NCBI RefSeq assembly: GCF_003018255.1 | Contig: NZ_CP027440.1 | Origin: Escherichia coli | Lineage (GTDB): Bacteria > Pseudomonadota > Gammaproteobacteria > Enterobacterales > Enterobacteriaceae | Length of the DNA: 64,000 nucleotides | Reading direction: 5' to 3' (one strand) | In this document: piece after piece, positions 23,649-25,183 of the stretch | Layout of the letters: each line of letters opens with the position of its first letter | Numbering within the stretch: the stretch's first letter is position 1 | The notes under the pieces: generated by a model | Told to the model about the DNA's origin: nothing | Seen by the model: the letters and a program-made list of their open reading frames with translations, nothing else | Database searches by the model: none | Program-made: the position numbers and the translations under genes

Positions 23649-23812
23649 TGCATAACACACGACCAGAAGTCGCATTATTTCTGGTCGTGTCGTGCGAATC
23701 ATAAGCAGTTGAGTGATCTGCATCGAAATTTTTGTTGCGCTCAAGTCTGAAATCAGTAATATATGCCGCCGTTGCCACGGGATATCAAACAAACCGAAAG
23801 CAACGAAAAAGT

Positions 23813-23888
23813 GGGTCGTTAGCTCAGTTGGTAGAGCAGTTGACTTTTAATCAATTGGTCGCAGGTTCGAATCCTGCACGACCCACCA
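23813..23888 (+). tRNA. lysT: tRNA-Lys (UUU)
   Basis: 76-nt gggtcgttagctcagttggtagagcagttgacttttaatc...cccacca; anticodon loop cttttaa; symbol assigned by position in the cluster. Confidence 0.92.
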
Positions 23889-24023
23889 ATCGCTAAGGTG
23901 GAAGCGGTAGTAAAACGTGAAGGATAACGTTGCGTCAGCAACGGCCCGAAGGGCGAGACGAAGTCGAGTCATCCTGCACGACCCACCACTAACCTAGTTA
24001 GTTGTAGTATCCAGCGTAGTATC

Positions 24024-24099
24024 GGGTGATTAGCTCAGCTGGGAGAGCACCTCCCTTACAAGGAGGGGGTCGGCGGTTCGATCCCGTCATCACCCACCA
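24024..24099 (+). tRNA. valT: tRNA-Val (UAC)
   Basis: 76-nt gggtgattagctcagctgggagagcacctcccttacaagg...cacccacca; anticodon TAC. Confidence 0.92.
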
Positions 24100-24101
24100 C
24101 C

Positions 24102-24177
24102 GGGTCGTTAGCTCAGTTGGTAGAGCAGTTGACTTTTAATCAATTGGTCGCAGGTTCGAATCCTGCACGACCCACCA
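24102..24177 (+). tRNA. lysW: tRNA-Lys (UUU)
   Basis: Identical to the lysT sequence, 2 nt after valT. Confidence 0.92.
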
Positions 24178-24228
24178 CTAATTACGGTGGGTTCGGTGGA
24201 AGTAGTTTGTAGTATTCAGCGCAGTATC

Positions 24229-24304
24229 GGGTGATTAGCTCAGCTGGGAGAGCACCTCCCTTACAAGGAGGGGGTCGGCGGTTCGATCCCGTCATCACCC
24301 ACCA
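24229..24304 (+). tRNA. valZ: tRNA-Val (UAC)
   Basis: Identical to the valT sequence. Confidence 0.92.
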
Positions 24305-24307
24305 CTC

Positions 24308-24383
24308 GGGTCGTTAGCTCAGTTGGTAGAGCAGTTGACTTTTAATCAATTGGTCGCAGGTTCGAATCCTGCACGACCCACCA
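24308..24383 (+). tRNA. lysY: tRNA-Lys (UUU)
   Basis: Identical tRNA-Lys copy. Confidence 0.92.
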
Positions 24384-24529
24384 GTTTTAACATCAAACTC
24401 AGATGTTAAGCGTGAAGGATAACGTTGCGCCAGCAACGGCCCGTAGGGCGAGCGAAGCGAGTCATCCTGCACGACCCACCAATTTTAAAGATTGGTTCCG
24501 AGTAGAAATCTTTCAGGTAACACCCGTAT

Positions 24530-24605
24530 GGGTCGTTAGCTCAGTTGGTAGAGCAGTTGACTTTTAATCAATTGGTCGCAGGTTCGAATCCTGCACGACC
24601 CACCA
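24530..24605 (+). tRNA. lysZ: tRNA-Lys (UUU)
   Basis: Identical tRNA-Lys copy. Confidence 0.92.
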
Positions 24606-24638
24606 TCCTGAATGATTAAAGCAGCATAATCCCGCAAG

Positions 24639-24714
24639 GGGTCGTTAGCTCAGTTGGTAGAGCAGTTGACTTTTAATCAATTGGTCGCAGGTTCGAATCC
24701 TGCACGACCCACCA
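24639..24714 (+). tRNA. lysQ: tRNA-Lys (UUU)
   Basis: Identical tRNA-Lys copy, last gene of the cluster. Confidence 0.92.
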
Positions 24715-25066
24715 ATGTAAAAAAGCGCCCTAAAGGCGCTTTTTTGCTATCTGCGATACTCAAAGATTCGAACCTGCAGCAGGTTCGAGTTGAGCGCAGC
24801 GAAACAACGGAGCCGCTCGCGGCGACGGCCCGTAGGGCGAGCGAAGCGAGTTATCCTGCACGACCCACCAATGTAAAAAAGCGCCCTAAAGGCGCTTTTT
24901 TGCTATCTGCGATACTCAAAGATTCGAACCTGCAGCAGGTTCGAGTTGAGCGCAGCGAAATAACGGAGCCGCTCGCGGCGACGGCCCGTAGGGCGAGCGA
25001 AGCGAGTCATCCTGCACGACCCACCAATGTAAAAAAGCGCCCTAAAGGCGCTTTTTTGCTATTCAG
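24715..25066 (+). repeat. 156-bp direct tandem repeat (2 full units plus a partial), each with an intrinsic terminator and a tRNA-Lys 3'-end-like segment
   Basis: Units 24715-24870 and 24871-25026 nearly identical; each has hairpin aaaaaagcgccctaaaggcgcttttttgc and ends in atcctgcacgacccacca; partial third unit to about 25066. Confidence 0.85.
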
Positions 25067-25183
25067 GCATCCTCAATTTCACTTTGTAACCTGATGACAT
25101 CTTCAGAGCTTACTTTGCAAGCAACTCTACGTCGGTGGAATTAGGCGTAATTCGAGTGACTTTTCCCCACCATTCGACTATCT

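Follow-up and report, generated by a model that had tools for sequence, protein, structure and literature searches.

Extra copies of the tRNA-Lys 3' end in the lysine/valine tRNA operon of Escherichia coli: probable members of the RtT RNA/tRNA-linked repeat family with strain-variable copy number

The tRNA operon located between cpoB and nadA in Escherichia coli carries, in addition to the 3' ends of its own tRNA-Lys genes, four extra copies of the tRNA-Lys 3' end, which we consider, with a probability of roughly 85%, to be members of the known RtT RNA/tRNA-linked repeat (TLR) family, whose structured modules lie in the spacers and trailers of stable-RNA operons. The element is thus already known and catalogued, and its weight as a discovery is low: the family has been described since 1978 (Egan and Landy, 1978; Bosl and Kersten, 1991; both as cited in PMC8144298 and PMC3318445), it is present in Rfam, and NCBI annotates it at this very site. 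The initial annotation of this DNA, which noticed the repeats, missed that they belong to a named family (RtT in Rfam; TLR). What is added here is the polymorphism of the locus, the occurrence of one core across gene types, and the co-variation between the 5' element and the 3' end of the module for the Tyr, short Lys and Arg modules.

In the window, i.e., the whole stretch of 64,000 nucleotides that was analysed, the operon comprises seven tRNA genes on the + strand between positions 23813 and 24714, all called by ARAGORN: tRNA-Lys(UUU) (23813..23888; the lysT equivalent, 79.2 bits with the Rfam tRNA model), tRNA-Val(UAC) (24024..24099), tRNA-Lys(UUU) (24102..24177), tRNA-Val(UAC) (24229..24304), and three further tRNA-Lys(UUU) genes (24308..24383, 24530..24605 and 24639..24714), the last of which is the lysQ equivalent. 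The spacers of 51 nt and 33 nt that follow the tRNA-Lys genes at 24102..24177 and 24530..24605, respectively, are module-free in the window and hold a module in K-12. The 18-mer that ends tRNA-Lys, ATCCTGCACGACCCACCA, is found nine times on the + strand of the window, and shuffled sequences are expected to contain 0.00 copies. Five of these are the 3' ends of the tRNA-Lys genes, and the four extra copies end at positions 23988, 24481, 24870 and 25026, all on the same strand as the operon and within its spacers or its trailer. The tRNA-Lys 3'-end-like fragments reported earlier in the spacers and downstream of the cluster are therefore real, and the second spacer copy is where it had been placed, except that it ends at 24481 and not at 24482. 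ARAGORN and the Rfam tRNA model both call only the seven genuine tRNAs, and a reading of the fragments as tRNA pseudogenes was rejected.

The two spacer copies belong to short modules located at 23889..23988 (predicted fold of -35.5 kcal/mol, z = -2.5) and 24384..24481 (-32.7 kcal/mol, z = -3.5), both on the + strand. These modules share about 92% identity across roughly 78 nt (including 23910-23957 versus 24405-24452), the second one being a variant with a GTA loop in its second hairpin and an 11-nt linker, and each has about 57 nt in common with both downstream copies. The latter are part of a + strand tandem array (24697..25062) with a period of 156 bp, 2.3 copies and 99% matches, which begins within the 3'-most 18 nt of the final tRNA-Lys, so that the 3' end of this gene opens the array. 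Both Tandem Repeats Finder and a direct-repeat search recovered these repeats, which is the outcome that the self-comparison proposed in the initial annotation looked for. The "two and a half" units of 156 bp described there are right as to the period and close to the 2.3 copies found, although the tRNA-Lys-like segment does not recur in every unit: the array contains two full RtT-like segments, i.e., the long units at 24745..24870 and 24901..25026 (both on the + strand), and three terminators. The strong intrinsic terminator claimed for each unit is indeed there, as all three array copies start with one (24719-24745, 24875-24901 and 25031-25057, + strand). The three share the sequence AAAAAAGCGCCCTAAAGGCGCTTTTTT, a GCGCC-CTAAA-GGCGC stem-loop followed by T6, and the first one, which lies 4 nt past the CCA and acts as the operon terminator, folds at -19.1 kcal/mol (z = -6.6). 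Its sequence is the same as that of the Rho-independent terminator at which the lysT transcript of K-12 ends (PMC4176162). No + strand terminator came out of a simple promoter/terminator scan, an artefact of its carrying the stem on through the A and T runs, and it is folding that reveals the structure.

Assignment to the family rests on several lines of evidence. All four copies exceed the gathering score of 45 of the RtT RNA model RF00391, with 60.6 bits (upstream tRNA included) and 54.4 bits for short modules 1 and 2 and 47.7 and 47.8 bits for long units 1 and 2, respectively. The higher values of the short modules arise in the full scan because the model recruits the T arm of the preceding tRNA, bridging an insertion of 44 nt; scanned alone, the first spacer scores 42.3 bits (E = 1.6e-7, model positions 51-130), just below the gathering score. 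Both long units are already labelled 'RtT sRNA' by the NCBI pipeline PGAP in JNE23-011, a strain with an independent complete genome in which the locus is 100% identical to that of the window. TLRs are defined by 18-19 bp at their 3' end that are identical to the upstream tRNA or rRNA (PMC8144298), and in all four copies 18 of 18 nt match the upstream tRNA-Lys. In addition, the 17-nt core pattern of the family is matched four times versus 0.02 expected, and a covariance model built from tyrT-type elements only also finds these elements. In the K-12 catalogue, as it is relayed in PMC8144298, TLRs amount to 22 copies at 10 loci with 1-5 copies per locus (Rudd, 1999), and the five RtT matches that we find at the lysine tRNA locus of MG1655 equal this stated per-locus maximum. 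Matches to the YrlA and Plastid-ycf2 families were also obtained; these are sub-threshold side effects of the tRNA genes and were discarded.

The short module, of about 98-100 nt, consists of a variable leader of about 25 nt, the 5' element CGTGAAGGAT, a core with hairpin 1 (CGTTGC-N4-GCAACG) and hairpin 2 (GCCC-GWA-GGGC), a small variable hairpin 3, and a 3' part formed by GAGTC followed by ATCCTGCACG ACCCACCA. In module 1 the three hairpins are CGTTGC-GTCA-GCAACG, GCCC-GAA-GGGC and the small GAC-GAA-GTC, after which the 18-nt copy of the tRNA-Lys 3' end follows. In the predicted fold of both short modules CGTGAAGGAT pairs with ATCCTGCACG at nine of ten positions, and CGTGAAGGAT itself reads as the final three bases of the acceptor 5' strand (CGU) fused to the 5' strand of the T stem. 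The predicted closing helix would therefore resemble a T stem stacked on the inner acceptor stem, continued by an 8-nt single-stranded tail ending in ...ACCA. Long units have an extra hairpin, whose 3' strand is composed of the T-stem 5' strand plus TTCGA, and a further small hairpin. In the E. coli long units the extra hairpin is the perfect palindrome TCGAACCTGCAGCAGGTTCGA (24768-24788 in unit 1), and the Lys long units of the E. coli type have a degenerate 5' element, ACTCAAAGAT, and no closing helix.

The 5' element changes together with the host gene. The counterparts of CGTGAAGGAT and ATCCTGCACG are GGGGAAGGAT and ATCCTTCCCC in the tyrT copies and CCAGGGGGGAT and ATCCTCCCGG in the Arg-linked copies, and the cognate duplex between 5' element and 3' end is better than non-cognate duplexes for the Tyr, short Lys and Arg modules. 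The claim of co-variation is restricted to these three groups because the cognate closing helix of the Pro-linked modules does not outperform the non-cognate controls and in the long Lys modules of the Pantoea type the same comparison is ambiguous. Moreover, the co-variation of the closing helix could stem from descent from the host tRNA and not from compensatory evolution. Alignments support the predicted structure. In the short-module alignment (14 modules, Lys and Arg) 95.6% of the cells are paired, versus 27-47% when the partners are slid, and hairpin 3 occurs with four pair types. Across the alignments the core hairpins are 93-100% paired and show compensatory changes. The closing helix of the long-module alignment (17 modules; Tyr, Lys and Pro) is 83% paired and includes four pairs in which both partners have changed, and an internal hairpin occurs with GC/UA/CG/UG. 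RNAalifold, however, favours a competing fold of the long modules in which AGGUUCG pairs with CGAG...UCC, that is, the T stem with a four-pair UUCG:CGAG extension. This fold is 96-98% paired with zero double changes. The two predicted folds would be mutually exclusive, and the long-module alignment appears equally compatible with the competing one.

The core is not confined to this locus. A scan of species-representative genomes with the 17-nt core returned at least 120 loci, to be taken as examples and not as a census, of which about two thirds are chance matches in GC-rich genomes. When the core had to be followed within 60 nt by the final 15 nt of a same-strand tRNA of the locus, at least 45 unique tRNA-linked cases with six tRNA types remained. 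Among the matches listed, these types are Lys(UUU) (26), Tyr(GUA) (11), Arg(ACG) (4), Pro(UGG) (2), Pro(CGG) (1) and Ser(GGA) (1), and the organisms include Citrobacter, Enterobacter, Escherichia albertii, Superficieibacter, Pantoea, Mixta, Pseudescherichia, Acerihabitans, Pluralibacter and Gilliamella, as well as several metagenome-assembled genomes. Between T1 and T2 of rrnB the same core is followed by a copy of the 5S rRNA 3' end and is therefore not tied to tRNA T loops. A common two-hairpin core is thus found behind Tyr, Lys, Arg, Pro and Ser tRNAs and behind 5S rRNA, and it always closes with the 3' end of the local gene.

Within E. coli the locus is highly polymorphic. Because a search of E. 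coli genomes with the locus as query was fragmented by the internal repeats, the query was replaced by both unique flanks joined; lengths were then surveyed in 59 genomes sampled evenly down the ranking, and 16 versions of the locus were mapped. The architecture suspected at the outset to be native is indeed so: it lies between cpoB and nadA in all 16 mapped versions, and in 5407 of the 5426 genomes no more than about 1.6 kb separates the two flanks. The sampled genomes fall into about 20 length classes, with flank-to-flank spans of 3604 to 4592 bp, and the mapped loci carry 4-8 tRNA genes, 0-6 modules and none, one or two long units, which bears out the suspicion that copy number could vary between strains. 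In one strain a single spacer holds a tandem pair of short modules. The arrangement of the window is uncommon, with 161-220 of 5,426 genomes colinear to it. The comparison with MG1655 proposed in the initial annotation gives four short modules and one long unit there versus two of each in the window, which has no modules in the lysW-valZ and lysZ-lysQ spacers and one more 156-bp unit. Even two K-12 sublines, MC4100 and MG1655, are one 208-bp unit apart, composed of a module, 33 nt and a tRNA-Lys gene. The length of the module-free allele, 3834 bp, was found in 11 of the 59 sampled genomes, equal length being taken as equal structure.

The borders of this variation are exact. In the 16 mapped loci each of the four long spacers occurs with and without its module, and the remaining spacer is fixed at 35, 51, 48 or 33 nt. 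An identical downstream flank adjoins the CCA of the tRNA in some strains and the CCA of the module in others, and the difference between alleles is therefore exactly one repeat-to-repeat interval. The modules are DNA cassettes bounded by direct repeats, which are the 18-nt tRNA 3' end, the whole 76-nt tRNA gene, or a 54-nt block of 3' end plus terminator. Direct repeats of 18, 54 and 76 nt could drive exact deletion and duplication through unequal recombination or replication slippage. At the lysine tRNA locus the modules are dispensable, since many strains carry none.

Expression of the modules can be framed by what is known of the operon in K-12. The lysT operon is transcribed as a single transcript of more than 1100 nt, the processing of which is dominated by RNase P, which removes the terminator and then frees the tRNAs singly from the 3' end, with a minor role of RNase E in the long spacers (PMC4176162). 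Northern blots of wild-type K-12 with probes for the spacers revealed few intermediates, and no stable species of about 100 nt was reported (PMC4176162). Release as a processed RNA is documented for homologues only, namely the rtT RNA of tyrT and RrA, RrB and RrF, located 3' of 5S rRNA (PMC8144298). A tRNA-like 3' end has been suggested to be a processing determinant for the 5S-linked copy (PMC8144298), and by analogy that of the short modules probably presents the same determinants as a tRNA. We infer that the short modules would be co-transcribed with the operon and, because they bear these determinants, excised as by-products by RNase P, RNase E and 3' exonucleases. A purely dispensable by-product is, however, difficult to square with how strongly the 17-nt core is conserved from genus to genus. 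The long units, located behind the operon terminator, would be transcribed only by read-through, and since each of them adds a terminator they may constitute a redundant terminator array ahead of nadA.

An alternative reading is that the modules are trans-acting sRNAs, or protein or RNA sponges, derived from the operon transcript, as are RrA, RrB and RrF with Hfq and CsrA or 3'ETS-leuZ. Conservation of the core across Enterobacterales and beyond and the stability of the predicted structures argue for this, as do the processing of the 5S-linked members and their in vitro binding to Hfq and CsrA (PMC8144298). However, module-free strains are common (11 of the 59 sampled genomes have that length), the loop of the second hairpin is GAA or GTA and not the GGA motif of CsrA, the CsrA-binding probability is below 0.01 for all 19 tRNA-linked members (PMC8144298), and the spacer probes mentioned above reported no stable species. 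The tRNA-linked members are without known function, and the sole functional claim, which involved rtT in the stringent response and in the recovery that follows amino-acid starvation, was subsequently withdrawn by its authors (PMC8144298). We thus regard this reading as unlikely, and a trans-acting role for these particular copies as possible but unsupported.

More speculative, and rather improbable in our view, is the proposal that TLR/RtT modules, instead of being passive spacers, are mimics of a tRNA minihelix, in which the 5' element that tracks the host tRNA would help to form the T stem and the inner acceptor stem and which, with its ...ACCA end, would interact with enzymes or toxins specific for the 3' ends of tRNAs, and/or that they are a non-autonomous element that would colonise further stable-RNA genes, each time copying the 3' end of the new host. 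This would explain why a single core follows at least six tRNA types as well as 5S rRNA, and the exact, repeat-bounded presence or absence of the modules.

Mobile elements that integrate into a tRNA gene typically leave a second copy of its 3' part, running from the T loop to the CCA. The extra 3' ends could accordingly be attL/attR scars of integrative elements in tRNA-Lys genes that have decayed to about 100 bp, and the exact 18-nt direct repeats bounding the modules and their presence/absence polymorphism would fit such an origin. Nevertheless, there is no integrase or mobile-element gene nearby, the neighbours being cpoB and nadA, and the 80-138 nt between the duplicated 3' ends are structured non-coding sequence, a conserved RNA with compensatory changes. 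Furthermore, one and the same core stands behind Tyr, Lys, Arg, Pro and Ser tRNAs and 5S rRNA with a different terminal repeat in each case, and a site-specific recombinase would not use a different 'core' repeat behind each gene type. An origin as att scars is therefore very improbable. Still less credible is a reading of the units as genes for a small, arginine-rich peptide resembling the Tpr of the tyrT repeats: although the tpr frame is kept by nucleotide homology (CRRQRPEGR in Tpr versus MRQQRPEGR or RRRPVGRAKR in the Lys modules), it starts in the Lys modules with TTG or GTG only and never with ATG, no ribosome-binding site was seen by eye for these frames, and the variation in the alignments is compensatory in hairpins and not synonymous. 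Finally, chance similarity or an assembly artefact can be dismissed in view of nine exact 18-mers versus zero expected, the identical locus in an independent complete genome and the homologous arrangements in thousands of genomes.

Membership of the RtT/TLR family thus remains the preferred reading, and its practical side concerns the variability of the locus. With about 600-1600 bp and 4-8 tRNA genes, the cpoB-nadA interval is among the more length-variable small loci of E. coli; it could therefore serve as a typing marker, and it is at the same time a trap for assemblers and for counts of tRNA genes, the number of tRNA-Lys genes already differing between the K-12 sublines MC4100 and MG1655. 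The contrast between a 17-nt core that is kept from E. coli to Gilliamella and whole modules that are dispensable at a given locus is worth explaining, and poses a modest, experimentally testable question.

Comparison with known members places the Lys modules within the family. The closest one is the RtT RNA of the E. coli tyrT-tyrV locus (rttR, RF00391). The tyrT locus of K-12 is where the rtT RNA (rttR) and tpr are annotated, and where the family was defined. The core hairpins of the tyrT copies are the same as those of the Lys modules, and the rule by which the 3' end duplicates that of the upstream tRNA is the same as well, the Lys modules carrying the 3' end and 5' element of tRNA-Lys and the tyrT copies those of tRNA-Tyr. 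The layout is also alike, with one copy in the tyrT-tyrV spacer and three tandem units past tyrV, and the tyrT copies have a predicted closing helix between the 5' element and the tRNA-derived 3' strand as the short Lys modules do. On the other hand, the Lys spacer copies are truncated at their 5' end relative to the tyrT RtT (model positions 51-130 only), the Lys tandem unit is 156 bp long and opens with an intrinsic terminator whereas the tyrT unit has 178 bp, and the Lys long units, unlike the tyrT copies, lack both the closing helix and an ATG-started tpr frame. These differences are accompanied by RF00391 scores of 48-61 bits for the Lys copies versus 133-137 for the tyrT copies. With regard to the TLR set of K-12, the lysine tRNA locus is, as far as the catalogue is relayed in PMC8144298, one of the catalogued loci (Rudd, 1999), and the window differs from MG1655 in its combination of short modules and long units, as described above. 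RrA, RrB and RrF, the TLRs between T1 and T2 of rrnA, rrnB and rrnD, share the common core (AACGTTGCGAAGCAACGGCCCGGAGGGTGG in rrnB) and differ in that their 3' end is a copy of 5S rRNA instead of tRNA and in that their second hairpin loop is GGA, the CsrA motif, where the Lys modules have GAA or GTA; binding of Hfq and CsrA has been shown for these three only (PMC8144298). 3'ETS-leuZ, the sponge function of which has been demonstrated, has no sequence kinship with the Lys modules and no copy of a tRNA 3' end, but it would resemble them, together with other tRNA-spacer RNAs, in being a by-product of tRNA operon processing that is able to persist.

At the Lys/Val tRNA operon, K-12 MG1655 carries five tRNA-Lys genes and five repeat modules, and K-12 MC4100 carries six of each. 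A 208-bp unit, [module + 33 nt + tRNA-Lys], that was duplicated within the K-12 lineage accounts for this difference. In strain KH_005, a tandem pair of short modules occupies the single spacer between the fourth and fifth tRNA-Lys genes, with the layout K-51-core-13-end-51-core-13-end-33-K. Therefore, the short modules duplicate as well as delete.

The spacer between lysQ and nadA also differs between MG1655 and the window. In MG1655 it contains a segment, AAAATGACGCATCCTGCACATTAGGCGT, of about 29 bp (2427-2455 of the MG1655 locus, L002) that the window lacks at the corresponding site, 25140-25149. This segment has direct repeats ATTAGGCGTA on both sides, and inside it lies a piece of the tRNA-Lys/TLR 3' end, CATCCTGCAC; the segment may be what is left of a further repeat copy.

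Each long unit contains one perfect 21-nt palindrome, TCGAACCTGCAGCAGGTTCGA (window 24768-24788 and 24924-24944), the 3' half of which equals the 5' strand of the tRNA-Lys T stem followed by TTCGA. Formation of this hairpin competes with pairing of its T-stem strand with the 3' ATCCTGC, and the equivalent hairpin in the Tyr- and Pro-linked relatives varies with the T stem of the host tRNA.

Judging from sequence, the operon promoter is likely TTGCGC, 16 nt, TAATAT (window 23730-23790), a candidate for which a consensus promoter scan made no call; its TAATAT is followed by the GC-rich discriminator GCCGCC. Rfam matches elsewhere in the window include the CpoB/ybgF thermometer (Rfam RF02782; 22748-22886, across the pal-cpoB junction region; 142 bits) and a molybdenum cofactor riboswitch (RF01055; 59998-60142; 103 bits).

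The two-hairpin core is also present, as AACGTTGCGAAGCAACGGCCCGGAGGGTGG, in K-12 rrnB between terminators T1 and T2, and a 5S rRNA 3'-end copy comes after it (L138, the K-12 rrnB region, 455-530). The rrnB T1-T2 region is used in many cloning vectors. The core and 5S-end copy are the RrB tRNA-linked repeat of PMC8144298, in which the second hairpin loop is GGA, whereas it is GAA or GTA in the Lys copies.
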